DNA of 64,000 nt from Escherichia coli. GTDB taxonomy: Bacteria; Pseudomonadota; Gammaproteobacteria; Enterobacterales; Enterobacteriaceae. Made by a program: the position numbers and the translations under genes. The stretch lies in NCBI RefSeq assembly GCF_013122565.1, contig NZ_CP053258.1; one strand, 5' to 3'. Shown piece by piece: positions 7,249 through 42,909 of this stretch; the stretch's first letter is position 1, and each line of letters begins with the position of its first letter. Below the pieces are notes generated by a model. It ran no database searches. It was not told the origin of the DNA and saw only the letters and a program-made list of their open reading frames with translations.

Positions 7249-7449
7249 GTTAATTTCCTCACATCGTGATGCGGATGAGTGTTTGAAAAAGCACATTTGA
7301 CCGTGCGAGATGATGGGATTCTATCAACTTCGCGGACTGGTTTTTTGTTACCTGTGGCAAATAATTGCAAACATTCCCAATTTGCAAAACGAAATTGTGA
7401 TGTGGATAACATTTTTGCCCCTGAGCATCGTCAGGGGCGGTTAGTGGAA

Positions 7450-23362: not shown

Positions 23363-24757
23363 TTAATCGTGAGCGCCGATTTCGCGCAGTTTACGACCTT
23401 TCATCAGATTACGTTCAATATGTTCCAGCGAAACGTGTTTGGTTTCCGGCACCAGCCACAATGTCAGCAGGATAAACAGTACGTTCAGAGCCGCATACAC
23501 CCAGAAGGTGTTGGCGTTACCCAGCGTGTTGAGCATGGTCAGGAACGTTGCGCCAACGATCATGTTGGCAATCCAGTTGGTGGCGGTGGAGCAGGTGATG
23601 CCAAAATCGCGGCCTTTCAGCGGCTGAATTTCGGAGCACAGTACCCAAATCAGCGGACCGGCACTCATGGCAAAACCGACAATAAACATCAGGAGCATGG
23701 CGATGGCGAAATACTGCGCCGACGGAGAGTGGATACCGATATGCATCATTGTACCGAGTACGCCCATACCAGCAGCCATCACCAGGAAGCCCAGCGTTAG
23801 CGTTGGTTTACGTCCCCAGCGGTCAACAAGGCCGATTGCGATAAAGGTGGCAAGTACGTTGGTCAGGCCGACAATCACTGTCCCCCACATTTGCTCGGTG
23901 GTGTTGGTATAACCCGCCAGTTCGAAGATTTTCGGCGCGTAATACATGATGACGTTCATCCCGGTGAATTGCTGCATTACCTGTAACAGTACGCCAAGGA
24001 ACACCGCGCGGCGGAAGTTGCTATTCTCTTTAAACAGCGCCCAGCCACTCTGTTTAACCTGCAAACTTTCACGGATTTCATCCAGTTCGCGTTTCGCTTC
24101 CGCGCTGGTGTCACGCAGGCGTAGCAGCACGCGTTCGGCATCAACAAAACGGCGTTTGGCGGCAAACCAACGCGGGCTGTCTGGCAGGAAGAAGACACCA
24201 ATCAGCAGCAAAATTGCCGGGATGATAATCACACCCAGCATCCAGCGCCATGCACCGGTGTAGCTGAAGGCGGTATCAGAAAGATAAGCACCGAGGATCC
24301 CGATAGTGATCATCAACTGATACATCGAGATCATACTGCCGCGAATTTTTTCCGGCGCAATTTCAGAGAGGTACAGCGGCGCGGTATAAGAGGCCACACC
24401 CACCGCCAGCCCCAGCAGAACGCGGGAAAGAATCAGTACTTCAACGTTTGGCGCAGCCGCAGAGAACAGTGAACCGGCAACAAACAAAATTGCGCCGATC
24501 ATCAGGCTCTTTTTGCGCCCGAGTTTAAAGGAGAGCCAGCCGCTGCCCACCGCACCGACTGCCGCACCGAACATCATGGAGCTTACGACCCATTCTTGCG
24601 TGTGCGAAGTAATCTGGAATTCATCTGCAATAAACGGCAGTGCGCCAGCAATTACACCGATATCCAGGCCAAAGAGTAATCCCGCCAGAGCAGCAAGGAA
24701 GCAGACGAAAAACGTCATTGCCTTGTTTGACCGCCCCTGTTTTTTAGCGTCAGGCAT
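23363..24757 (-). CDS. galP: Galactose:H+ symporter (MFS sugar porter)
   Basis: ORF 23363..24769 trimmed to [12 protein letters not shown] (464 aa); 12-TM sugar porter signature. Confidence 0.9.
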
Positions 24758-24839
24758 GATGCCCTCCAATATGGTTATTTTTTATTGTGAATTAAGATAG
24801 GTGAGTACGACGTAAAAAGATGTGAAGCAAATCACATCA

Positions 24840-24855
24840 GTGTAATCGCTTACAC
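24840..24855. promoter_or_regulatory. Candidate GalR/GalS operator in the galP promoter region
   Basis: GTGTAATCGCTTACAC, a near-perfect dyad of the GalR operator type, lies about 85 bp upstream of the galP start. Confidence 0.4.
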
Positions 24856-25144
24856 TAACATTTATCTTGGTTATGATTTAAGTGCATGAAAATAATTGAG
24901 TTATATCATCATAGATCAAACGCTGTTATCTGCAATTAAGACTTTACTGAAAAGAAATGTAACAACTGTGAAAGCCGAATAATAATATGAAAATATTACA
25001 AATCTTTGTCTGTTGTGGTTGGTGTAATCGGTTTCAGTTGTGATGATAATTTGCGGTGAAACGTGATCAGGAAGAATGATGTTATTGTGCGGGCGGTTTT
25101 TTTGCTGGGTGCGGCGTGAACGCCTATCCACCGCGGTGAGGTAA

Positions 25145-25175
25145 AAGAAAAAGGCCAGCGCGAGGCTGGCCTTTG
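25145..25175 (-). terminator. Rho-independent terminator downstream of metK
   Basis: GGCCAGCCTCGCGCTGGCC stem followed by a T-run when read on the minus strand. Confidence 0.45.
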
Positions 25176-25193
25176 AAAGCAGGTGAAGAAAGA

Positions 25194-26348
25194 TTACTTC
25201 AGACCGGCAGCATCGCGCAGCAGCTGCGCTTTGTCGGTTTTTTCCCACGGGAAATGTTCACGACCAAAGTGACCGTATGCTGCGGTTTCTTTGTAGATCG
25301 GGTGCAGCAGATCCAGCATCTGAATCAGACCGTATGGGCGCAGGTCGAAGAACTCACGTACCAGCAGAGTCAGTTGTTCAGAAGGCACTTTCTCAGTACC
25401 GAAAGTTTCTACCATGATGGAAGTCGGTTCAGCCACGCCGATTGCGTAGGAAACCTGAATTTCACAACGATCGGCCAGGCCAGCAGCAACGATGTTTTTT
25501 GCAACATAACGTGCTGCGTACGCAGCGGAACGGTCCACTTTTGATGGATCTTTACCAGAGAATGCACCGCCACCGTGACGCGCCATGCCGCCGTAGGTAT
25601 CAACGATAATTTTACGACCAGTCAGACCGCAGTCACCCATTGGGCCACCGATAACGAAACGACCGGTCGGGTTGATGAAGAATTTGGTGGCAGAAGTCAG
25701 CCATTCAGCGGGCAGAATTGGCTTGATGATCTCTTCCATTACCGCTTCTTGCAGCGATTTCTGGTCGATCTCTTCAGAGTGCTGAGTGGAAAGCACGACA
25801 GCATCAATACCAACGATTTTGCCGTCGTCATACTGGAAAGTCACCTGGCTTTTCGCGTCCGGGCGCAGCCACGGCAGAGTGCCGTTTTTACGCACTTCAG
25901 CTTGACGCTGTACCAGACGGTGTGCATAGGTGATAGGTGCTGGCATCAGCACGTCGGTTTCATTAGTTGCGTAGCCAAACATCAGACCCTGGTCACCCGC
26001 GCCCTGTTCCAGCGGATCGGCACGGTCAACGCCCTGGTTGATGTCAGGAGACTGTTTGCCGATAGCGCTCAGAACCGCACAGGAGTTAGCGTCAAAGCCC
26101 ATGTCGGAATGTACATAGCCAATTTCGCGAACGGTGTTACGGGTGATCTCTTCGATGTCTACCCAGGCGCTGGTGGTGATTTCGCCGCCAACTAAAACCA
26201 TGCCGGTTTTTACGTAGGTTTCGCAAGCAACGCGTGCTTTCGGATCCTGTTCGAGGATCGCGTCTAAAACGGCATCAGAAATTTGGTCAGCAATTTTGTC
26301 AGGATGCCCTTCAGAGACGGACTCGGACGTAAAAAGGTGTTTTGCCAT
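25194..26348 (-). CDS. metK: S-adenosylmethionine synthetase
   Basis: ORF 25194..26360 trimmed to [18 protein letters not shown] (384 aa). Confidence 0.9.
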
Positions 26349-29996: not shown

Positions 29997-30061
29997 CAAC
30001 CTCGCTTGATGCCTCGCCCATTTAAGGCGATAATTAACACAAACTTGTGTTTCGCAAATCC

Positions 30062-30103
30062 AACCCTTCCTCGTCGGGCCTAACGACGCGGAAGGGTTTT
30101 TTT
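30062..30103 (+). terminator. Rho-independent terminator after the lipoprotein gene
   Basis: AACCCTTCC...GGAAGGGTT stem followed by TTTTTTT. Confidence 0.45.
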
Positions 30104-30131
30104 ATATCGACTTTGTAATAGGAGTCCATCC

Positions 30132-31052
30132 ATGAGCACCTTAGGTCATCAATACGATAACTCACTGGTTTCCAACGCCTTTGGTTTTTTACGCCTGCCG
30201 ATGAACTTCCAGCCGTATGACAGCGATGCTGACTGGGTGATTACTGGCGTGCCGTTCGATATGGCCACTTCTGGTCGTGCGGGTGGTCGTCACGGTCCGG
30301 CAGCTATTCGTCAGGTTTCGACGAATCTGGCCTGGGAACACAACCGCTTCCCGTGGAATTTCGACATGCGTGAGCGCCTGAACGTGGTGGACTGCGGTGA
30401 TCTGGTATATGCCTTCGGCGATGCCCGTGAGATGAGCGAGAAGCTGCAGGCACACGCCGAGAAGTTGCTGGCTGCCGGTAAGCGTATGCTCTCCTTCGGT
30501 GGTGACCACTTTGTTACGCTGCCGCTGCTGCGTGCTCATGCGAAGCATTTCGGCAAAATGGCGCTGGTACACTTTGACGCCCACACCGATACCTACGCGA
30601 ACGGTTGTGAATTTGACCACGGCACCATGTTCTATACCGCGCCGAAAGAAGGTCTGATCGACCCGAATCATTCCGTGCAGATTGGTATTCGTACTGAGTT
30701 CGATAAAGACAACGGCTTTACCGTGCTGGACGCCTGCCAGGTGAACGATCGCAGCGTGGATGACGTTATCGCCCAGGTGAAACAAATTGTGGGTGATATG
30801 CCGGTTTACCTGACCTTTGATATCGACTGCCTGGATCCTGCTTTTGCACCAGGCACCGGTACCCCGGTAATTGGCGGCCTGACCTCCGATCGCGCTATTA
30901 AACTGGTACGCGGCCTGAAAGATCTCAACATCGTTGGGATGGACGTAGTGGAAGTGGCTCCGGCATACGATCAGTCGGAAATCACCGCTCTGGCTGCGGC
31001 GACGCTGGCGCTGGAGATGCTGTATATTCAGGCGGCGAAAAAGGGCGAGTAA
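30132..31052 (+). CDS. speB: Agmatinase
   Basis: 306-aa ORF of the arginase/ureohydrolase family (conserved His/Asp Mn-binding residues, e.g. GGDHF...DAHTD). Confidence 0.9.
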
Positions 31053-31200
31053 GTCATCTGCCTGGTTGAATTTTTTACACAGTCCCTTGTCTGGCACAAG
31101 GGACTTATCATTTAAAACCTATCCTGTTAATTAAGTCATCTTACCCTGACTGCTGTTTTTTAATGGATTGTTATTATCGCGTTTTTAATGGAATAAATAG

Positions 31201-32763
31201 ATGGAACGCACTCTTCCCTGGAAGCCTCTTCTTTGTTTGTTATTTCTTTTATCAACTGGCTGCGATAGAGCAGAAAAACAGAAAATTGCCGCACAGCTGC
31301 AACAAGACAAAGAAGCTATTTCCTCTGTCGTCAAAAAGAGTTATCGCGCATTATGTGGCCCTGAGTTTGTCACCAGCATAGATTCGCACGATCGCCTTGC
31401 GGAAATGCAGCAAGTATTTACGCCTGCTTTAATGGAGCCTGTACTGAAATACTGGCAAGAGTCACCCAAAACGTGTAAACGACGTTTCCCCAGTTATAGC
31501 GATCCTTCAGCGACCTTCGTCGAAGGCGACAAGGCGCAGATTGGTGCTTTTTTTGGTCACCAATCTGATATTGATATTCCAATGGAGTTAATCCGGCAAG
31601 GGGATGGTAAATGGAAGATTGCTGCGATTGATATTGCATCGTTACACGAGTTTGAAAAAAACGGTCGGGTTACTGATGAGGTGCAGAAAAAAATAGATTT
31701 GCTTAAAAAACGCTCATTCAAGCAACATAGGGATTCCCCTGTGCTGACGAGGACCGCGCCAGAGCGGGTCAGTAAGTCCCCTTTGACATCGATGGAGCAA
31801 ACAGTTACGGAGCAAGACTCTTCCTGGCTGGATGTCTTACTGACAATAGGCAAATATGCCCTTTATCTGGTAGCGATAATACTTATTCTCGCCTTGGTGG
31901 CTGTTTTGTGGATTGGTTATGGCCTGGTGTTCGCCGGACATCGCCTTTTCAAAGCATCCTGTAGAGATCCCTCAATTCAAAAAATTCCTGTGGCTGAACG
32001 TTGGGCAATGGCAGTCGGCGCGCCTTATGCCATTGCGGGTAACAATCACTGGGCGCGACGAGTCGTTAATGATGATTCCGAGGAAGCAGAGAATGATTGC
32101 AAAAGTGAAGTTGAGTCCCTTGCTGACATGTGGGGCGTCTTTGATCGGGATTCGTTACTTGAGCAACTCTTAGCTTTGTTTGTTGCAGGGCATCGTTCAG
32201 TTTATGAAGAACAGATCAAAAACGATAGCGAAATGCCGGATGCTGAATATCGCGCGTTCGCTCAGCAATTAGCCCAGAACGCGAAATCAAGTAGCGAAGC
32301 GAAAGAGCGTTTGTGGCAGCTACAGATGGTCAGAAAAAATCGACGTAAAATATGCGATATAGATTTTTGTGCCTGGGATATGGTGCGTTTTGTCATGCTA
32401 TGTAATAGCGGGGCGCAAGTGGGATACATTACCCAGCGTGAAATGGTCGATTTTTCGATGCTGGCAGCCAGACGCGTACAGCAACATTACAGAAGCTGGC
32501 GCGAATTGGCCGGGCATTTTTTGCTGGCCCGTTGGTACTGGAAAGCAACGGATAAACGGCACCTGATTACCCATATTCTTTTTAAGAAAGCCATTACATC
32601 TTTATTAAAAGAGCAGGGGAGTCCGTGGCGTACTTTACCCTGGGATACTCCATTACCTGAAGGAACAGAGACGGCTTTTGCCTGGGCTTGTGGCGTAAGC
32701 ACTGCCGATGTAGTAGAGGTGCGATTGGATACACCAGATAAAGCAATCTACGAAGCGAATTGA
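31201..32763 (+). CDS. Hypothetical 520-aa lipoprotein/membrane protein with a possible DUF1266-like C-terminal domain (accessory)
   Basis: N-terminal signal peptide with lipobox (LLSTGC), a roughly 190-aa soluble region, a long hydrophobic segment (LDVLLTIGKYALYLVAIILILALVAVLWIGYGLVFAG), then a roughly 280-aa C-terminal region with CAWDMVRF and LLARWYW motifs that remind me of DUF1266 (YbeR/YbeU-type). The family call is from memory only. Confidence 0.5.
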   Translation: MERTLPWKPLLCLLFLLSTGCDRAEKQKIAAQLQQDKEAISSVVKKSYRALCGPEFVTSIDSHDRLAEMQQVFTPALMEPVLKYWQESPKTCKRRFPSYSDPSATFVEGDKAQIGAFFGHQSDIDIPMELIRQGDGKWKIAAIDIASLHEFEKNGRVTDEVQKKIDLLKKRSFKQHRDSPVLTRTAPERVSKSPLTSMEQTVTEQDSSWLDVLLTIGKYALYLVAIILILALVAVLWIGYGLVFAGHRLFKASCRDPSIQKIPVAERWAMAVGAPYAIAGNNHWARRVVNDDSEEAENDCKSEVESLADMWGVFDRDSLLEQLLALFVAGHRSVYEEQIKNDSEMPDAEYRAFAQQLAQNAKSSSEAKERLWQLQMVRKNRRKICDIDFCAWDMVRFVMLCNSGAQVGYITQREMVDFSMLAARRVQQHYRSWRELAGHFLLARWYWKATDKRHLITHILFKKAITSLLKEQGSPWRTLPWDTPLPEGTETAFAWACGVSTADVVEVRLDTPDKAIYEAN

Positions 32764-32816
32764 TGCTCCAAATGATTGAACTTGTTTAATGACTGTGGCC
32801 GGCTCTGAATGAAAAT

Positions 32817-32842
32817 TTCTCCGACATTCCTGTCGGAGAAAT
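32817..32842. terminator. Hairpin between the convergent 520-aa gene and loiP
   Basis: TTTCTCCGAC-ATTCCTG-TCGGAGAAA inverted repeat. Confidence 0.35.
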
Positions 32843-32848
32843 ATGAAA

Positions 32849-33607
32849 TTACTTAACCCCATCCGCGCTCATGCGATCGCGAATATGCTGGGCGCGTTCG
32901 GCGGATGCCGGGTGGTCGTCAAACATTGAGCTTTGACGGCCTTCTTCCAGCTTCGCCAGTTTTTCAAAGCTGGTGGCAAGACCTGCCGGGCTGATGCCGC
33001 GTTGGCGCAGAAGATCGTAAGAATAATCATCGGCTTCTGCTTCCTGGCGCTGGGAGAATTGCGAATTGACTAATTTCTCGCCCAGATCACCAAGTTGTGA
33101 TTGAGATAAACTGCCGACAATCCCGCCCGCAGAGGCCGCAGCTACTCGCACGGCATTTGTACCAAGCGCTACCTGCATCCCTTTCTTCACATGGCCTAAC
33201 GCCACGTGCCCCATTTCGTGACCGATCACCGCTTCGACTTCGTTATCCGTCATCATATCCATCAGCCCGCTATAGACGCGGATACAGCCGTTAGCCATTG
33301 CAAAGGCGTTCACATCCTTCGCCATATACACTTTGTAATTTACCGGCTGACCGTTGATATTGTTGCCTAGCGCATTGGCAATAGTTGTCAGACGTTTAGC
33401 ATATTCGCTATTGGCTGGCGCAATCGTCGCCTTGCTGTCCATCTCCTGACATGCCTGATCGCTCAGGGCTTTCACCTGCGCATCACTCAAACTGTAAGCC
33501 TGAAAAGCTTCCGCTCCTGATGAAAGCAGTCCGTTGGAGTCCATATTCTGGCAACCGGTCAGTACCGTTGCCACGCTCATTGCTACCAATAAGGCGCGAA
33601 TTTTCAT
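32849..33607 (-). CDS. loiP: Outer-membrane metalloprotease LoiP (M48 family)
   Basis: ORF 32849..33826 trimmed to MKIRALLVAMSVATVLTGC (252 aa); HEMGH zinc motif. Confidence 0.85.
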   Translation of the reverse strand: MKIRALLVAMSVATVLTGCQNMDSNGLLSSGAEAFQAYSLSDAQVKALSDQACQEMDSKATIAPANSEYAKRLTTIANALGNNINGQPVNYKVYMAKDVNAFAMANGCIRVYSGLMDMMTDNEVEAVIGHEMGHVALGHVKKGMQVALGTNAVRVAAASAGGIVGSLSQSQLGDLGEKLVNSQFSQRQEAEADDYSYDLLRQRGISPAGLATSFEKLAKLEEGRQSSMFDDHPASAERAQHIRDRMSADGVK

Positions 33608-33884
33608 GTTTTCTCTTCCGCACAAGGTCAGGATTATTCTAAAAATGCGCCGTTTGCAGGTGAATCGACGCTCAGTCTCAGTATAAGGAAAAGCGCAGCA
33701 GACGGGCGAGAAGATTGCGCAACATGCGAGCATGATCCAGAGATTTCTGAAGCGGCAAAAGGATGTTCCATGTACATGACGCGCGGCTTGCGGTAAATTG
33801 TTGGCAAATTTTCCGGCGTAGCCCAAAACGCGCTGTCGTCAAGTCGTTAAGGGCGTGCCCTTCATCATCCGATCTGGAGTCAAA

Positions 33885-35876
33885 ATGTCCTCACGTAAAG
33901 AGCTTGCCAATGCTATTCGTGCGCTGAGCATGGACGCAGTACAGAAAGCCAAATCCGGTCACCCGGGTGCCCCTATGGGTATGGCTGACATTGCCGAAGT
34001 CCTGTGGCGTGATTTCCTGAAACACAACCCGCAGAATCCGTCCTGGGCTGACCGTGACCGCTTCGTGCTGTCCAACGGCCACGGCTCCATGCTGATCTAC
34101 AGCCTGCTGCACCTCACCGGTTACGATCTGCCGATGGAAGAACTGAAAAACTTCCGTCAGCTGCACTCTAAAACTCCGGGCCACCCGGAAGTGGGTTACA
34201 CCGCTGGTGTGGAAACCACCACCGGTCCGCTGGGTCAGGGTATTGCCAACGCAGTCGGTATGGCGATTGCAGAAAAAACGCTGGCGGCGCAGTTTAACCG
34301 TCCGGGCCACGACATTGTCGACCACTACACCTACGCCTTCATGGGCGACGGCTGCATGATGGAAGGCATCTCCCACGAAGTTTGCTCTCTGGCGGGTACG
34401 CTGAAGCTGGGTAAACTGATTGCATTCTACGATGACAACGGTATTTCTATCGATGGTCACGTTGAAGGCTGGTTCACCGACGACACCGCAATGCGTTTCG
34501 AAGCTTACGGCTGGCACGTTATTCGCGACATCGACGGTCATGACGCAGCATCCATCAAACGCGCAGTAGAAGAAGCGCGCGCAGTGACTGACAAACCGTC
34601 CCTGCTGATGTGCAAAACCATCATCGGTTTCGGTTCCCCGAACAAAGCCGGTACCCACGATTCCCACGGTGCGCCGCTGGGCGACGCTGAAATTGCCCTG
34701 ACCCGCGAACAGCTGGGCTGGAAATACGCGCCGTTCGAAATCCCGTCTGAAATCTATGCTCAGTGGGATGCGAAAGAAGCAGGCCAGGCGAAAGAATCCG
34801 CATGGAACGAGAAATTCGCTGCTTACGCGAAAGCTTATCCGCAGGAAGCCGCTGAATTTACCCGCCGTATGAAAGGCGAAATGCCGTCTGACTTCGACGC
34901 TAAAGCGAAAGAGTTCATCGCTAAACTTCAGGCTAATCCGGCGAAAATCGCCAGCCGTAAAGCGTCTCAGAATGCTATTGAAGCGTTCGGCCCGCTGTTG
35001 CCGGAATTCCTCGGCGGCTCTGCTGACCTGGCACCGTCTAACCTAACTCTGTGGTCTGGTTCTAAAGCAATCAACGAAGATGCTGCGGGTAACTACATCC
35101 ATTACGGTGTTCGCGAGTTCGGTATGACCGCGATTGCTAACGGTATCTCCCTGCACGGTGGTTTCCTGCCGTACACCTCCACCTTCCTGATGTTTGTGGA
35201 ATACGCACGTAACGCCGTACGTATGGCTGCGCTGATGAAACAGCGTCAGGTTATGGTTTACACCCATGACTCCATCGGTCTGGGCGAAGATGGCCCGACT
35301 CACCAGCCGGTAGAGCAGGTTGCTTCTCTGCGCGTGACCCCGAACATGTCTACATGGCGTCCGTGTGACCAGGTTGAATCCGCGGTTGCGTGGAAATACG
35401 GTGTTGAGCGTCAGGACGGCCCGACTGCGCTGATCCTCTCCCGTCAGAACCTGGCGCAGCAGGAGCGTACCGAAGAGCAGCTGGCAAACATCGCGCGCGG
35501 TGGTTATGTGCTGAAAGACTGTGTCGGTCAGCCGGAACTGATCTTCATCGCGACCGGTTCTGAAGTTGAACTGGCTGTCGCTGCCTACGAAAAACTGACT
35601 GCTGAAGGCGTGAAAGCGCGCGTGGTTTCCATGCCGTCTACCGACGCATTCGACAAGCAGGACGCGGCTTACCGTGAGTCTGTCCTGCCGAAAGCGGTTA
35701 CTGCACGCGTTGCGGTAGAAGCGGGTATTGCTGACTACTGGTACAAGTATGTTGGCCTGAACGGTGCTATCGTCGGCATGACCACCTTCGGTGAATCTGC
35801 TCCGGCAGAGCTGCTGTTTGAAGAGTTCGGCTTCACCGTTGACAACGTTGTTGCGAAAGCCAAAGCGCTGCTGTAA
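33885..35876 (+). CDS. tktA: Transketolase 1
   Basis: ORF 33855..35876 trimmed to the ATG at 33885 ([13 protein letters not shown]), giving 663 aa. Confidence 0.9.
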
Positions 35877-35895
35877 TCAGTAAGACGTTTTGTGA

Positions 35896-36268
<373 letters not shown>

Positions 36269-37177
36269 TTATTTAGTTGAGATAAACGGAACGGTGCTGC
36301 CGGGGATCATGGTATCGGGCAGTTTACCGTCCCAACGTTCGGCAGTGGTGAGGGCTACAAGTCCGGGATTATCCCGCAGAGCTTCACCGCGCAGGCGGAT
36401 TGCTTCTGCTTCAGCCGCACTTTTTAAACGAATAGTTTCAGCCTCTGCCGCGCCTCTTACGCGAATAGTTTCCGCTTCTGCTTTGGCTGCCGCCAGTTTA
36501 CTGTCTGCTTCTGCCTGGGCCTGAGTTACCGCTATTTGCGCCTGGATTTTCTCTGTTTCCAGATTTTGCTTACGCGTGGCAATGGCGACTTCTGCTTTCA
36601 TTCGGTCTTCAATCGACTTTTCATAAGCGTCAGAAAAATCAATATTTTCAATCTGGACCCCGTCAATTACCACTGGCCCAACAACCGCTTTGCGCATCGC
36701 ATTTTGCAGATCCTGAACCAGTTTTGTACGATCCTGTACGGCGCTGATGGCGGTATATTGGCCGAAAACGTTCTCCAGTTGAGTTGGCAACTGACGGACA
36801 ATCAGACGATCTTTTAATGCTTCAATGGTGTTGTAGGTGGTATAAACCGCGCCTGCTTCTGAAGGTTTAATGTGGAAGCTGACTGATACTGTCATTTGTG
36901 CCGGTTGCTGGTCGCGGCTGTAGGCCTGTAATCCCTGATAGACCACAGCCTGATTACGCGTGGAAATTTTCTCCACGCTTTCCATAAACGGGATCTTAAA
37001 ACCCAGACCCGGCTCGGCAACTTTTACGATTTTTCCGTAGCGCAGCAAAATGCCGCGTTCACCTTCATTAACGGTGTAATACGAGAGAAATGGCAGCACA
37101 ACCACGGCAAGCACGCCAATGGCGATAGCAATAGATTTTTGAGGGCGAAATGAGGTTATAGAAACAGGTGCTTTCAT
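36269..37177 (-). CDS. SPFH/band-7 (prohibitin/HflC-like) membrane protein (accessory)
   Basis: 302-aa ORF with an N-terminal TM helix (IAIAIGVLAVVVLPFL), an SPFH core with the PGLGFKIPF motif, and a C-terminal Ala/Glu-rich coiled-coil repeat (AEAETIRVRGAAEAETIRLKSAAEAEAIRLRG). It is not QmcA, HflK or HflC by sequence. Confidence 0.6.
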   Translation of the reverse strand: MKAPVSITSFRPQKSIAIAIGVLAVVVLPFLSYYTVNEGERGILLRYGKIVKVAEPGLGFKIPFMESVEKISTRNQAVVYQGLQAYSRDQQPAQMTVSVSFHIKPSEAGAVYTTYNTIEALKDRLIVRQLPTQLENVFGQYTAISAVQDRTKLVQDLQNAMRKAVVGPVVIDGVQIENIDFSDAYEKSIEDRMKAEVAIATRKQNLETEKIQAQIAVTQAQAEADSKLAAAKAEAETIRVRGAAEAETIRLKSAAEAEAIRLRGEALRDNPGLVALTTAERWDGKLPDTMIPGSTVPFISTK

Positions 37178-37554
37178 GACAATCTTCCTTGAGTAAAGTG
37201 TGGGAATATGTCACATGAGATGAGGAGAAAACAGCCGACAGGTGAGAATTCAGAATCTATAAAGGGGTATAGCGAAAAAACATTGCATTAGAAAAGTATG
37301 TTTTCGAACATTCAATAAATAAATAGAGACATGCATCACAAATACAATAACAAACAAAGCGTTGATTTTGTGATAAACATAACAAATACAAAGTCGACTT
37401 TAAAAATATCAATTTCATATTGTTGTTATTTAAGCTTTTATTATTTTGGTTTGTGGGGTTTTTCTTCTCGCGTACCCAATTGCTTTCATTAAATCGCACG
37501 AGTATTTTATTTTTACCGCCGGACGGTACCCTAAAAATAAAATAAGGATAATTT

Positions 37555-37998
37555 ATGCGGCTTAGTGATTATTTTCCAGAATCATCAATCTCAGTTATAC
37601 ATTCAGCAAAAGATTGGCAGGAAGCTATCGATTTCTCGATGGTATCATTGCTGGATAAAAACTATATCAGCGAGAATTACATTCAGGCAATTAAAGATTC
37701 CACTATTAACAATGGCCCTTATTATATTCTCGCACCAGGCGTGGCAATGCCTCATGCGCGACCGGAATGTGGGGCGCTTAAAACCGGGATGTCTTTGACG
37801 TTACTTAAACAAGGCGTTTATTTCCCGGAGAATGACGAACCGATTAAATTACTCATCGGACTTTCTGCTGCCGATGCCGATTCGCACATTGGCGCTATTC
37901 AGGCGTTAAGTGAATTACTGTGCGAAGAAGAAATACTCGAACAACTCTTAACAGCATCATCAGAAAAACAATTAGCGGACATTATCAGCCGCGGATAA
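37555..37998 (+). CDS. cmtB: Cryptic mannitol-type PTS enzyme IIA
   Basis: 147-aa ORF with a PTS EIIA-2 fold motif; preceded by a roughly 380-bp AT-rich leader. Confidence 0.85.
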   Translation: MRLSDYFPESSISVIHSAKDWQEAIDFSMVSLLDKNYISENYIQAIKDSTINNGPYYILAPGVAMPHARPECGALKTGMSLTLLKQGVYFPENDEPIKLLIGLSAADADSHIGAIQALSELLCEEEILEQLLTASSEKQLADIISRG

Positions 37999-38025
37999 TT
38001 ACTCTCTCCTCTACAGGATAATATT

Positions 38026-39414
38026 ATGGAAAACAAGTCTGCTCGTGCAAAGGTCCAGGCTTTTGGGGGCTTTTTGACGGCAATGGTCATCCCCAATATC
38101 GGTGCTTTTATTGCCTGGGGCTTTATAACTGCGTTATTTATTCCCACCGGTTGGCTGCCGAATGAACATTTCGCCAAAATTGTCGGCCCGATGATTACCT
38201 ATTTATTGCCCGTGATGATTGGTTCTACCGGTGGTCACCTGGTCGGCGGTAAACGCGGGGCGGTCATGGGCGGAATAGGTACTATTGGTGTGATCGTCGG
38301 CGCTGAAATCCCGATGTTCCTTGGCTCGATGATTATGGGGCCGCTCGGTGGTCTGGTGATTAAATATATCGACAAGGCGCTGGAAAAACGCATACCTGCC
38401 GGTTTTGAGATGGTTATCAATAACTTCTCATTAGGTATCGCGGGGATGCTCCTTTGTCTGCTGGGTTTTGAAGTGATCGGCCCGGCGGTGTTAATTGCCA
38501 ATACTTTCGTCAAAGAGTGTATCGAGGCGCTGGTACATGCGGGTTATCTGCCTCTGCTGTCAGTTATCAATGAACCGGCGAAAGTGCTTTTCCTCAATAA
38601 TGCGATCGATCAGGGCGTCTATTATCCGCTGGGAATGCAACAGGCTTCTGAAACGGGTAAATCCATCTTCTTTATGGTGGCGTCCAATCCGGGGCCTGGA
38701 TTAGGGCTGCTGCTGGCGTTTACCTTGTTTGGTAAAGGGATGAGTAAACGTTCTGCGCCCGGGGCGATGATTATTCACTTCCTCGGTGGGATCCACGAAC
38801 TGTATTTCCCGTATGTGCTGATGAAGCCGCTGACCATTATTGCCATGATTGCGGGCGGTATGTCTGGCACCTGGATATTTAACTTACTGGACGGTGGTCT
38901 GGTGGCTGGCCCAAGTCCGGGGTCTATCTTTGCGTACCTGGCACTGACGCCGAAAGGCTCGTTCCTGGCGACAATTGCTGGTGTTACGGTAGGTACCCTG
39001 GTGTCCTTTGCTATCACTTCGCTGATACTGAAGATGGAAAAAACGGTGGAAACGGAGAGCGAAGATGATTTTGCTCAGTCAGCCAATGCGGTTAAGGCGA
39101 TGAAACAAGAGGGTGCATTCTCATTAAGCCGTGTTAAGCGTATCGCTTTTGTTTGCGATGCAGGGATGGGATCGAGTGCGATGGGCGCGACCACCTTCCG
39201 TAAACGCCTGGAAAAAGCGGGGCTGGCAATAGAAGTAAAACATTACGCGATAGAAAACGTGCCTGCGGATGCGGATATCGTCGTTACTCATGCCAGTCTG
39301 GAAGGGCGCGTGAAACGTGTGACGGATAAACCGCTGATATTGATTAATAACTATATTGGCGATCCAAAACTCGACACTTTATTTAATCAATTAACCGCCG
39401 AACATAAACACTGA
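38026..39414 (+). CDS. cmtA: Cryptic mannitol-type PTS enzyme IICB
   Basis: 462-aa ORF with a multi-pass EIIC domain and a C-terminal EIIB motif (CDAGMGSS). Confidence 0.85.
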   Translation: MENKSARAKVQAFGGFLTAMVIPNIGAFIAWGFITALFIPTGWLPNEHFAKIVGPMITYLLPVMIGSTGGHLVGGKRGAVMGGIGTIGVIVGAEIPMFLGSMIMGPLGGLVIKYIDKALEKRIPAGFEMVINNFSLGIAGMLLCLLGFEVIGPAVLIANTFVKECIEALVHAGYLPLLSVINEPAKVLFLNNAIDQGVYYPLGMQQASETGKSIFFMVASNPGPGLGLLLAFTLFGKGMSKRSAPGAMIIHFLGGIHELYFPYVLMKPLTIIAMIAGGMSGTWIFNLLDGGLVAGPSPGSIFAYLALTPKGSFLATIAGVTVGTLVSFAITSLILKMEKTVETESEDDFAQSANAVKAMKQEGAFSLSRVKRIAFVCDAGMGSSAMGATTFRKRLEKAGLAIEVKHYAIENVPADADIVVTHASLEGRVKRVTDKPLILINNYIGDPKLDTLFNQLTAEHKH

Positions 39415-39428
39415 TTACAGAGGTAAAA

Positions 39429-40706
39429 ATGAAAACCAAAGTTGCTGCTATTTATGGCAAGCGGGATGTCCGTCTGCGCGAATTTGAACTGCCAGAAATT
39501 ACCGATAATGAACTGCTGGTGAGTGTAATTTCTGACAGCGTCTGTTTATCGACCTGGAAAGCGGCGTTACTCGGTAGTGAACATAAACGCGTACCCGACG
39601 ATTTAGAAAATCATCCGGTCATTACCGGGCATGAATGTGCCGGGGTTATTGTCGAAGTGGGTAAAAATCTCACTGGCAAATATAAAAAAGGCCAGCGTTT
39701 TGTATTGCAACCGGCGATGGGGTTACCAAGCGGATATTCAGCGGGCTACAGCTACGAATATTTTGGCGGCAATGCCACTTATATGATTATTCCCGAAATC
39801 GCCATTAATTTGGGCTGCGTATTACCGTATCACGGCTCTTATTTTGCTGCGGCGTCGCTGGCAGAGCCTATGTGCTGCATTATTGGTGCTTATCATGCCA
39901 ATTATCACACCACGCAATATGTTTATGAGCATCGCATGGGCGTCAAACCTGGCGGCAATATTGCACTGCTGGCGTGTGCAGGTCCGATGGGCATTGGCGC
40001 TATCGATTACGCCATTAACGGCGGCATACAACCGTCGCGGGTGGTGGTGGTCGATATCGACGACAAACGCCTGGCGCAGGTACAGAAGCTGCTGCCGGTG
40101 GAACTGGCGGCCAGTAAAGGCATTGAGCTGGTGTATGTGAATACCAAAGGGATGAGCGATCCAGTCCAGATGCTGCGGGCGCTTACAGGAGATGCCGGGT
40201 TCGATGACATTTTTGTTTATGCGGCGGTGCCTGCTGTCGTTGAGATGGCTGACGAATTACTGGCGGAAGATGGCTGTCTGAACTTCTTTGCTGGTCCGAC
40301 GGATAAAAACTTCAAAGTGCCGTTTAATTTCTACAACGTCCATTACAACAGCACGCACGTCGTCGGTACATCCGGCGGTTCAACAGACGACATGAAAGAG
40401 GCGATTGCCCTTAGCGCCACAGGGCAGTTACAGCCGTCGTTTATGGTGACCCATATCGGTGGCCTGGATGCGGTGCCAGAAACCGTGCTCAATCTGCCGG
40501 ATATCCCTGGCGGAAAAAAACTCATTTATAACGGCGTGACTATGCCGCTCACTGCCATTGCCGATTTTGCCGAAAAAGGCAAAACCGATCCGCTGTTTAA
40601 AGAGTTGGCGCGGCTGGTTGAGGAAACGCACGGCATCTGGAATGAGCAGGCCGAGATATATCTGCTGGCGCAATTTGGCGTTGATATCGGGGAGGCCGCG
40701 CAATGA
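39429..40706 (+). CDS. yggP: Zinc-type alcohol/polyol dehydrogenase-like protein
   Basis: 425-aa ORF of the MDR family, directly downstream of cmtA. Confidence 0.85.
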   Translation: MKTKVAAIYGKRDVRLREFELPEITDNELLVSVISDSVCLSTWKAALLGSEHKRVPDDLENHPVITGHECAGVIVEVGKNLTGKYKKGQRFVLQPAMGLPSGYSAGYSYEYFGGNATYMIIPEIAINLGCVLPYHGSYFAAASLAEPMCCIIGAYHANYHTTQYVYEHRMGVKPGGNIALLACAGPMGIGAIDYAINGGIQPSRVVVVDIDDKRLAQVQKLLPVELAASKGIELVYVNTKGMSDPVQMLRALTGDAGFDDIFVYAAVPAVVEMADELLAEDGCLNFFAGPTDKNFKVPFNFYNVHYNSTHVVGTSGGSTDDMKEAIALSATGQLQPSFMVTHIGGLDAVPETVLNLPDIPGGKKLIYNGVTMPLTAIADFAEKGKTDPLFKELARLVEETHGIWNEQAEIYLLAQFGVDIGEAAQ

Positions 40707-41668
40707 TGTCCCTGGCGTGGCCATTATTTCGCGTTACGGAACAGGCAGCGTTGGCTGCCTGGCCGCAAACCGGATGTGGCGACAAAAATAAAATTGATGG
40801 CCTGGCGGTCACCGCGATGCGCCAGGCATTAAACGACGTTGCTTTTCGTGGGCGAGTGGTTATCGGCGAAGGAGAAATTGACCATGCGCCGATGTTGTGG
40901 ATTGGCGAAGAGGTGGGCAAAGGCGATGGGCCAGAAGTCGATATCGCGGTTGACCCGATCGAAGGCACGCGAATGGTGGCGATGGGGCAGAGCAATGCGC
41001 TGGCGGTCATGGCTTTCGCCCCTCGGGATAGCCTGTTACATGCGCCCGATATGTATATGAAAAAGCTGGTTGTTAATCGGCTGGCGGCGGGCGCGATTGA
41101 TCTGTCTTTGCCTCTGACGGACAACCTGCGCAACGTAGCGAAAGCGTTAGGCAAACCGCTGGACAAGCTGCGCATGGTTACGCTGGATAAACCGCGCCTG
41201 AGTGCCGCAATTGAGGAAGCAAAGCAACTGGGCGTGAAGGTTTTCGCTCTGCCGGATGGCGATGTCGCCGCCAGCGTGCTGACCTGCTGGCAGGATAATC
41301 CTTACGACGTGATGTACACCATCGGCGGTGCGCCAGAAGGCGTGATTTCTGCCTGTGCCGTTAAAGCATTAGGCGGGGATATGCAGGCCGAGCTGATTGA
41401 CTTTTGTCAGGCTAAAGGGGATTACACGGAAAATCGGCAGATTGCAGAGCAGGAGCGCAAGCGTTGCAAGGCAATGGGCGTTGACGTTAACCGTGTGTAC
41501 TCGCTCGATGAACTGGTGAGGGGGAACGATATCCTCTTTAGCGCTACGGGCGTGACGGGCGGTGAGCTGGTGAACGGTATCCAACAGACGGCGAATGGGG
41601 TGCGGACGCAGACATTACTGATCGGCGGCGCGGACCAAACGTGTAATATAATAGACTCCCTGCATTGA
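40703..41668 (+). CDS. yggF: Class II (GlpX-type) fructose-1,6-bisphosphatase homologue
   Basis: 321-aa ORF whose start overlaps the yggP stop. Confidence 0.85.
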   Translation: MMSLAWPLFRVTEQAALAAWPQTGCGDKNKIDGLAVTAMRQALNDVAFRGRVVIGEGEIDHAPMLWIGEEVGKGDGPEVDIAVDPIEGTRMVAMGQSNALAVMAFAPRDSLLHAPDMYMKKLVVNRLAAGAIDLSLPLTDNLRNVAKALGKPLDKLRMVTLDKPRLSAAIEEAKQLGVKVFALPDGDVAASVLTCWQDNPYDVMYTIGGAPEGVISACAVKALGGDMQAELIDFCQAKGDYTENRQIAEQERKRCKAMGVDVNRVYSLDELVRGNDILFSATGVTGGELVNGIQQTANGVRTQTLLIGGADQTCNIIDSLH

Positions 41669-41689
41669 TGGTGATCTATCGGAAGACCA

Positions 41690-42199
41690 ATGGCGACGCT
41701 GACAGAAGATGATGTGCTTGAGCAACTGGATGCACAGGACAATTTATTTTCATTTATGAATACTGCGCATTCTATTTTGCTCCAGGGGATACGCCAGTTT
41801 CTGCCGTCGCTGTTTGTCGATAACGATGAAGAGATCGTCGAATATGCAGTGAAGCCGTTACTCGCCCAAAGCGGCCCGCTTGACGATATTGATGTTGCAC
41901 TGCGTTTGATTTATGCGCTGGGGAAAATGGATAAATGGCTGTACGCCGATATCACGCATTTTTCCCAGTTCTGGCATTACCTGAACGAACAGGATGAAAC
42001 GCCCGGATTTGCCGATGTCATGACCTGGGATTTTATCAGCAACGTCAATAGCATAACCTGCAATGCGACGCTCTATGACGCGTTGAAAGCGATGAAGTTC
42101 GCCGATTTCGCCGTCTGGTCAGAGGCGCGTTTTAGCGGAATGGTCAAAACGGCGCTGACGCTGGCAGTAACGACCACCTTAAAGGAATTAACGCCGTGA
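41690..42199 (+). CDS. yggD: MtlR-like protein YggD (FumE)
   Basis: 169-aa ORF in the conserved position. Confidence 0.8.
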   Translation: MATLTEDDVLEQLDAQDNLFSFMNTAHSILLQGIRQFLPSLFVDNDEEIVEYAVKPLLAQSGPLDDIDVALRLIYALGKMDKWLYADITHFSQFWHYLNEQDETPGFADVMTWDFISNVNSITCNATLYDALKAMKFADFAVWSEARFSGMVKTALTLAVTTTLKELTP

Positions 42200-42909
42200 A
42201 AATTGAATTAACGGTGAATGGGCTGAAGATACAGGCACAGTACCAGAACGAAGAGATTGAAAATGTACATAAACCGTTGCTGCGTATGCTGGCGGCCTTA
42301 CAGACGGTAAATCCGCAGCGGCGTACGGTGGTTTTTCTTTGCGCTCCGCCGGGGACGGGTAAATCTACCCTAACTACCTTCTGGGAATATCTCGCGCAAC
42401 AAGACCCGGAACTGCCCGCTATTCAGACGCTGCCGATGGATGGTTTTCACCATTACAATAGCTGGCTGGATGCGCATCAATTGCGCCCCTTCAAAGGCGC
42501 ACCAGAGACATTTGACGTTGCGAAACTGGCGGAAAATCTGCGCCAGGTCGTGGAAGGGGATTGTACGTGGCCGCAGTACGATCGACAAAAGCATGATCCT
42601 GTTGAAGATGCGTTGCACGTTACCGCACCACTCGTCATCGTCGAAGGAAACTGGTTGTTGCTGGACGACGAGAAGTGGTGCCAGCTAGCGCAGTTTTGTG
42701 ATTTCTCGATCTTTATCAATGCGCCAGCTACTGCGTTGCGGGAACGACTGGTGGGGCGCAAGCTGGCGGGAGGGTTATCGCTGGCAGACGCAGAAGCTTT
42801 TTATGACCGTACCGACGGGCCGAATGTTCGCCGGGTGCTGGAAGAGAGTCTGCCTGCAAATTTGACCTTAATGATGACCGCTACGGGTGAATATCGTCTG
42901 GTGGATTAA
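42196..42909 (+). CDS. yggC: P-loop nucleoside/pantothenate-kinase-like protein
   Basis: 237-aa ORF with Walker A PPGTGKST. Confidence 0.8.
   Translation: MKIELTVNGLKIQAQYQNEEIENVHKPLLRMLAALQTVNPQRRTVVFLCAPPGTGKSTLTTFWEYLAQQDPELPAIQTLPMDGFHHYNSWLDAHQLRPFKGAPETFDVAKLAENLRQVVEGDCTWPQYDRQKHDPVEDALHVTAPLVIVEGNWLLLDDEKWCQLAQFCDFSIFINAPATALRERLVGRKLAGGLSLADAEAFYDRTDGPNVRRVLEESLPANLTLMMTATGEYRLVD

Follow-up and report, generated by a model that had tools for sequence, protein, structure and literature searches.

The window analysed here, a stretch of 64,000 nucleotides of Escherichia coli DNA, carries tktA, a REP/BIME array, a gene of the SPFH family, an AT-rich spacer and then cmtB, cmtA, yggP, yggF, yggD and yggC, in that order. 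The spacer, which runs for 377 bp from the ATG of the SPFH gene on the minus strand to the ATG of cmtB, corresponds exactly to positions 37178-37554 and adjoins the 444-bp gene cmtB (37555-37998). The operon name used here, cmtBA-yggPFDC, is that of PMC3105977 (Table S). The locus is laid out as follows:

33855-35876, plus strand: tktA
36269-37177, minus strand: SPFH/Band-7 ("prohibitin family") gene, 302 aa (Pfam Band_7, E = 5.6e-32)
37178-37554, no strand assigned: AT-rich spacer from which the SPFH gene and cmtB diverge, 377 bp, 31.8% GC
37555-42909, plus strand: cmtB-cmtA-yggP-yggF-yggD-yggC operon served by this region (NCBIfam matches)

The REP/BIME array, at about 35890-36260, has the stop codon of tktA on one side and the SPFH gene's 3' end on the other, and consists of two near-identical units of about 174 bp. 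Within it (35894-36251) Rfam returned ES036 above the gathering score and naRNA4 below it. In K-12-type strains the array is replaced by a simple hairpin terminator, and its copy number varies among strains of the SPFH type. The window is 2-4% diverged from each of 5,426 complete E. coli genomes, and its lineage stands at the margin of the E. coli sampled so far or outside it. Over speB-loiP-tktA (for example 30000-35876), identity to the window does not exceed about 98% in any complete E. coli genome of this collection. The genes tktA and cmtA are each about 96% identical to K-12, and a DUF1266 gene between speB and loiP is found in only 210 genomes (at least 80% coverage).

The initial annotation had singled out a strongly AT-rich region of roughly 380 bp at this place, which a GC scan bore out. 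Mean GC is 51.2% in the window, with an sd of 4.5% among stretches of 377 bp, and the spacer, at 31.8% (z = -4.3), is the lowest-GC stretch of its size within the 64 kb; equally low positions make up 0.23% and all fall at the cmt locus. The 100-bp minimum, 21% GC, is at 37346, and the AT run that had been quoted as an example is indeed present, starting at 37314. The neighbouring genes have GC contents of 49.3% (SPFH gene), 42.3% (cmtB) and 50.0% (cmtA). Tracts of four or more A or T residues number 13 in the spacer compared with a mean of 3.9 per 377 bp, an approximately three-fold enrichment, and TpA steps have a density of 0.088 compared with 0.044, an approximately two-fold enrichment. Among the next lowest-GC stretches is the metK-galP spacer (24580-25215), where the lowest 377 bp have 34% GC. 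Composition, motifs and motif conservation in the spacer are properties of the window sequence itself, and the following elements were placed in it:

37178-37289, minus strand: SPFH-proximal part, with the Shine-Dalgarno sequence AAGGAAG and a 5' region conserved in alignment A4
37259-37254, minus strand: -10-like TAGATT, an inferred candidate promoter element of the SPFH gene, conserved in alignment A4
37290-37476, no strand assigned: distal regulatory segment, diverged from its K-12-type counterpart upstream of cmtB (a "switched" allele)
37325-37340, no strand assigned: predicted CRP site 1, AGAGACATGCATCACA, 10.9 bits, centre 222.5 bp upstream of the cmtB ATG
37369-37384, no strand assigned: predicted CRP site 2, TGTGATAAACATAACA, 15.3 bits, centre 178.5 bp upstream of the cmtB ATG
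37394-37399, plus strand: conserved TTGAC/TTGC block, TCGACT in the window, with TTG (nearly) invariant across genera
37422-37434, plus strand: conserved block ATTGTTATTTAAG, with TGTT and one A invariant in alignment A2
37477-37554, plus strand: proximal 78 bp, 99% shared with K-12-type strains
37480-37508, plus strand: best conserved candidate cmtB core promoter, sigma-70 type, with -35 TTGCTT at 37480-37485, a 17-bp spacer and -10 TATTTT at 37503-37508
37503-37544, no strand assigned: perfect 13-nt inverted repeat, TATTTTATTTTTA / TAAAAATAAAATA, with a 16-nt spacer, probably incidental

The proximal 78 bp contain the core promoter, a short leader and the Shine-Dalgarno sequence AAGGA (37545-37549). 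Conservation was assessed in an alignment (A2) of 22 loci, each contributing 300 bp upstream of cmtB, which represent Escherichia, Citrobacter, Salmonella arizonae and diarizonae, Silvania, Raoultella, Lelliottia, Huaxiibacter, Superficieibacter, Enterobacter and Phytobacter. The pattern TTG(C/A)TT-17-TATTTT is kept in 21 of these 22 orthologous regions, from about ten genera; downstream of it follow a T-run, a variable 16-nt segment and a conserved GTACCCTAAAAATAAAATAAGGA with the Shine-Dalgarno sequence. As a promoter it is weak, matching 7 of the 12 sigma-70 consensus positions, and with a promoter weight matrix it is the second-best plus-strand match in the region at an unremarkable 8.3 (window median 7.2). 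A simple scan for promoters and terminators accordingly reported nothing within the spacer, the core promoter scoring under the threshold of the scanner. From the position of the -10 element, the predicted start of cmtB transcription is near 37515, and the leader would be about 40 nt long; a search of the literature located no transcription start data for cmtB. Since the greater part of the stretch is upstream of the promoter with the best conservation, it is probably not cotranscribed with cmtB, and the label "leader" under which the region had been annotated fails: the bulk of it is promoter and upstream regulatory DNA. Positions 37178-37554 are the ordinary control region of the cmt operon, which encodes the second mannitol transporter, and are of a kind that has already been documented.

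Potential binding sites for CRP were scored with a weight matrix built from 105 ETEC H10407 ChIP-seq sites (PMC4287617 Table 1), from which the cmtB site had been left out; the 105 training sites scored a median of 13.0 bits with a 10th percentile of 8.0. Both predicted sites resemble the 16-bp consensus TGTGA-N6-TCACA as closely as bound sites typically do, and at 44 bp from each other they form a short direct repeat. CRP site 2 ranks third in the 64 kb, behind the known nupG and galP sites. These two top matches, at 7396-7411 and 24821-24836, are both members of the training set. A score of at least 15.3 bits was reached in 0.1% of composition-matched shuffles, and the pair of sites in none of 3,000. 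The alignment columns of both sites carry CRP-like sequence in most orthologues: those of site 1 do so in all 22 (6.7-18.2 bits), and site 2 is found at the same columns in Escherichia, Citrobacter, Salmonella and Raoultella. In the window allele, site 1 is weakened by a substitution away from the consensus at 37330; the CFT073 version of site 2 is weaker than that of the window.

CRP activates at class I and class II promoters from positions -41.5, -61.5, -72.5, -82.5 and -92.5 with respect to the transcription start. Measured from the predicted start of the conserved core promoter, the two sites at cmtB are near -138.5 and -182.5 and, if this promoter is the one used, they are too far away for classical class I or class II activation; among the alternative promoters considered for cmtB, none has a -10 element that is conserved. 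Site 1 is the positional homologue of the CGTGTTGTAGATCACA site of K-12 and ETEC, in the same register and at the same -222.5 position. In ETEC H10407, which has the K-12-type allele, that site lies under a CRP ChIP-seq peak 16-fold over threshold, among the strongest genome-wide (PMC4287617 Table S3); the same site was recovered for CRP by genomic SELEX in K-12, where a cmtB promoter-lacZ fusion also showed lower activity in a crp mutant (PMC3105977). These binding and activation experiments concern the K-12-type allele, and by analogy CRP would be expected to bind and activate in the window as well. Moreover, cmtB of EHEC EDL933 is 4-8-fold up in bovine gut contents compared with M9-glucose (PMC6199705), a response of an inducible operon and not of a dead one, so that the earlier description of the cmt operon as "cryptic" was overstated.

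The spacer has a composition of the type bound by H-NS, with 31.8% GC over 377 bp, A-tracts and TpA steps. The high-affinity nucleation motif of H-NS is a TCGATAAATT-like 10-mer. The spacer holds 1 match at up to two mismatches and 9 at up to three, compared with 1.1 and 7.7 in composition-matched shuffles. As the motif is no commoner than in shuffles, a prediction of H-NS binding made from the sequence draws on AT content alone. The expectation that H-NS binds here was nevertheless borne out by ChIP-seq of H-NS and StpA in a related strain, the UPEC strain CFT073, which has the same SPFH-spacer-cmtB layout as the window and a spacer about 80% identical to it. On a scale of per-gene averages normalised to the mean of the top 20 genes (set at 1), with 0.07 as the cut-off for "bound", CFT073 cmtB is strongly bound by H-NS and StpA, with an H-NS value of 0.58, and the values of its neighbours are 0.18 for the SPFH gene (c3523), 0.11 for cmtA and 0.10 for yggP (PMC9765446 Data set S1E). 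CFT073 cmtB is still scored as bound in an hns mutant (0.25) and in an hns stpA double mutant (0.12), and retention of signal in the latter is regarded by the authors of that study as the mark of the highest-affinity sites (PMC9765446). A signal with its maximum on cmtB that fades on both sides fits a filament nucleated on AT-rich DNA, although these per-gene averages do not resolve the H-NS peak itself onto the spacer. The binding data come from the CFT073 allele and by analogy would apply to that of the window; no H-NS data for the K-12 or the window allele were found in the literature searched, and cmtB itself is absent from the H-NS table of PMC4720273. The regulatory account first given for the region therefore has ChIP support in CFT073 for its H-NS component and was incomplete in that two conserved CRP sites had been missed.

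The same account had suggested that the divergent SPFH gene might be silenced too. Since c3523 in CFT073 scores 0.18, above the cut-off of 0.07, the gene lies inside the H-NS-bound patch, weakly; by analogy with that strain the suggestion would hold for the window to the extent of weak H-NS binding. The SPFH gene, which by NCBIfam is not a member of the HflK or HflC equivalogs, is accessory: it is found in 1,813 of 5,426 E. coli genomes (about a third) and is absent from all non-Escherichia loci examined. At this position it occurs in E. albertii, E. whittamii, cryptic-clade genomes and some E. coli, and it is an Escherichia-only insertion. A literature search for c3523 found no papers. The CFT073 RefSeq record annotates the gene (L036, 2093-2996) as a frameshifted pseudogene; the frameshifts are probably errors of an old sequence, because Data set S1G of PMC9765446 lists five single-base insertions in it relative to that record. 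Promoter prediction on both strands had been proposed for the region. On the SPFH side the scanner yielded nothing, and TAGATT, conserved among the seven SPFH-type Escherichia loci of alignment A4, remains as a candidate. Another SPFH promoter, TTGAAT-17-TCTAAT, was rejected because its -10 element is not conserved in A4, and a tktA terminator remnant at 37255-37290 showed similarity too weak to call.

Upstream of cmtB, the conserved TTGAC/TTGC block differs in the window from every other sequence compared within the species: the C at 37395 occurs in 0 of 5,426 complete E. coli genomes, as does an exact match to the surrounding 60-mer, and the position is T in all other Escherichia and in at least 90% of the aligned genera. 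An upstream promoter at this block was considered and discarded, its -10 partner not being conserved. Eight differences separate the spacer from that of strain RM9872, and 6 of the 8 are AT-to-GC in the window. The window allele could be weakened, because the substitutions at 37330 and 37395 are both off-consensus, and the unique T-to-C change at 37395 together with the weakened CRP site 1 may mean that the allele of this lineage is decaying. YggD, encoded at 41690-42199, is a putative regulator of the MltR family (NCBIfam PRK10022, 330 bits) and may bind the two conserved blocks at 37394-37399 and 37422-37434.

Three allele classes of the spacer were found in E. coli, with full-length homologues of the window spacer at 93-98% identity, others at about 80% (CFT073-like) and a K-12 type, represented by about 3,580 genomes, that shares the last 78 bp only. 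Identity to the K-12 type breaks at the upstream edge of the -35 element (-78). Distal to this break, from -79 to -265, window and K-12 have 49% ungapped identity (shuffles 29 +/- 3%, z = 6.2; other offsets at most 35%) and each is as distant from the other as from Citrobacter or Salmonella. Such a break fits the concept of switched intergenic regions described in PMC5890482, which cites Oren et al. 2014. A short inverted repeat, ATGTT-TTCG-AACAT, lies at 37298-37313, and K-12 has GTCCG-TTTG-CGGAC offset by 2 nt; these repeats, nearly but not exactly aligned between the two alleles, are probably coincidental and are not conserved outside Escherichia.

We consider it probable that the region is the control region of cmtBA-yggPFDC, with a core promoter, two CRP sites and an H-NS/StpA filament, which serves at the same time as the upstream region of the SPFH gene. 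Transcription would begin from the weak, highly conserved sigma-70 core promoter at 37480-37508, about 40 nt upstream of the cmtB ATG. Binding of cAMP-CRP at the two sites 44 bp apart would turn the operon on when glucose is absent, while some 300 bp of DNA with 27-32% GC would nucleate a filament of H-NS and StpA, by which basal expression is held down and which extends weakly into the genes on either side. If the filament holds expression low, CRP probably acts in part as a counter-silencer. The transcription start, the promoter on which CRP acts and the antagonism between CRP and H-NS are what we infer from this arrangement.

A plain CRP-dependent sugar-operon promoter, with AT-richness of the usual kind and H-NS as a passive coating of no regulatory effect, would account for the conserved CRP sites and core promoter and for the CRP activation seen in K-12-type strains; it would also agree with an H-NS motif no better than chance, and searches for cmtB or SPFH gene expression in hns mutants found no data in the literature covered. 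Against it speak the CFT073 value for cmtB, which at 0.58 of the genome maximum is far over 0.07 and belongs to a signal kept in hns stpA, and the base composition, the most extreme over 377 bp in 64 kb, and we regard passive coating as unlikely. A further explanation, that the AT-rich DNA is foreign, came in on a small island together with the SPFH gene and owes to this its AT-richness and H-NS binding (xenogeneic silencing), draws on the accessory nature of that gene and on the mere 49% identity of the distal spacer to the K-12 type. Yet the cmtB upstream region has 27-37% GC in 32 of 32 loci from about ten genera, including every genus without the SPFH gene; outside Escherichia, cmtB directly follows tktA across a spacer of about 320 bp. 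As GC is low in all 32 loci, AT-richness is ancestral to the cmt control region and was not brought by the SPFH gene. Furthermore, the window allele is in register with K-12 and the other genera and has the same CRP sites and blocks, and the SPFH gene itself has 49% GC, so that at most the leftmost 110 bp or so (41% GC) came along with it. An origin as a foreign island is thus very improbable.

It is scarcely credible that the stretch encodes a small protein, a small RNA or a structured riboregulatory leader, although it does contain ORFs of 80, 53 and 41 codons and the perfect 13-nt inverted repeat before the Shine-Dalgarno sequence. None of the ORFs has a Pfam match, and divergence in the distal part is too great for reading frames to have been kept; Rfam gave no match within the spacer at E<=1, its only hits being those in the REP/BIME array. 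The inverted repeat overlaps the -10 element, abuts the Shine-Dalgarno sequence and brackets the predicted start, and conservation across genera extends to both arms, although 5 nt are deleted from the right one in E. albertii, Raoultella and E. coli RM9872. With a fold z-score of -0.35 compared with shuffles, no consensus pairs in RNAalifold, no covariation and these deletions tolerated, a hairpin before the Shine-Dalgarno sequence was rejected, as was an essential operator formed by the repeat, given the same tolerance of its right arm.

Within the preferred reading of a CRP- and H-NS-dependent control region, the divergence of the distal segment allows a more tentative proposal. It is possible that at least three deeply diverged distal alleles (K-12, window and CFT073, 49-80% identical and as distant as separate genera), in which only transcription factor sites and their spacing are constant, are H-NS-coated regulatory DNA that has been diversifying unusually fast or has been swapped by recombination with its end point exactly at the core promoter, and that the region became a divergent promoter in two of them when the SPFH gene was inserted. 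If true, this would mean lineage-specific wiring of cmt and of a captured SPFH gene to CRP and H-NS. Beyond annotation, the locus as a whole has little import: a "leader" becomes a control region in which a likely core promoter and two CRP sites can be placed, and published ChIP-seq data from a related strain support the guess of H-NS binding. Its one mildly unusual trait is how deeply the distal alleles diverge. It does provide a clean example of a core operon whose upstream DNA is about 50% different between strains with the factor sites in register, and of a newly inserted gene, the SPFH gene, apparently placed under an existing CRP/H-NS-controlled region. The divergence of the alleles could explain strain differences in cmt expression.

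The closest known system is the tktA-cmtB spacer of K-12-type strains (K-12, ETEC H10407, O157), which is orthologous, 99% identical over the last 78 bp and similar in GC content (32.9%), and which has CRP-like sites at the same distances (-222.5 and -178.5) and the same conserved blocks. It differs in that the SPFH gene is missing, the tktA terminator abuts the spacer, the distal 190 bp are 49% identical, and the stronger CRP match is site 1 (13.9 bits), whereas in the window it is site 2 (15.3 bits). Switched intergenic regions likewise consist of strongly divergent spacer alleles upstream of a conserved gene in one species; in contrast to these, the cmt alleles are still homologous in register, have kept their transcription factor sites, and the switch is coupled to the gain of a divergent gene.

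Functionally, the cmt region resembles that of the bgl operon of E. coli, the classic "cryptic" sugar PTS operon, in which H-NS silences a CRP-dependent promoter (PMC9678765). Both control regions are AT-rich and bound by H-NS, have a CRP site upstream of a weak promoter and belong to PTS sugar operons that have been called cryptic. Evidence for a downstream H-NS silencer, DNA looping, an antiterminator of the BglG type or activation by IS insertion is lacking at cmt, and the K-12 cmtB promoter has measurable CRP-dependent activity; the resemblance is one of function and not of homology. The control region of mtlA, the paralogous mannitol PTS, has several CRP sites, as does that of cmt, and the MltR-family YggD encoded by the cmt operon adds a further parallel between the two systems. 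In the ETEC ChIP-seq data, the CRP peaks at mtlA/yibI (27-45-fold over threshold) and at cmtB (16-fold) are all among the strongest (PMC4287617).
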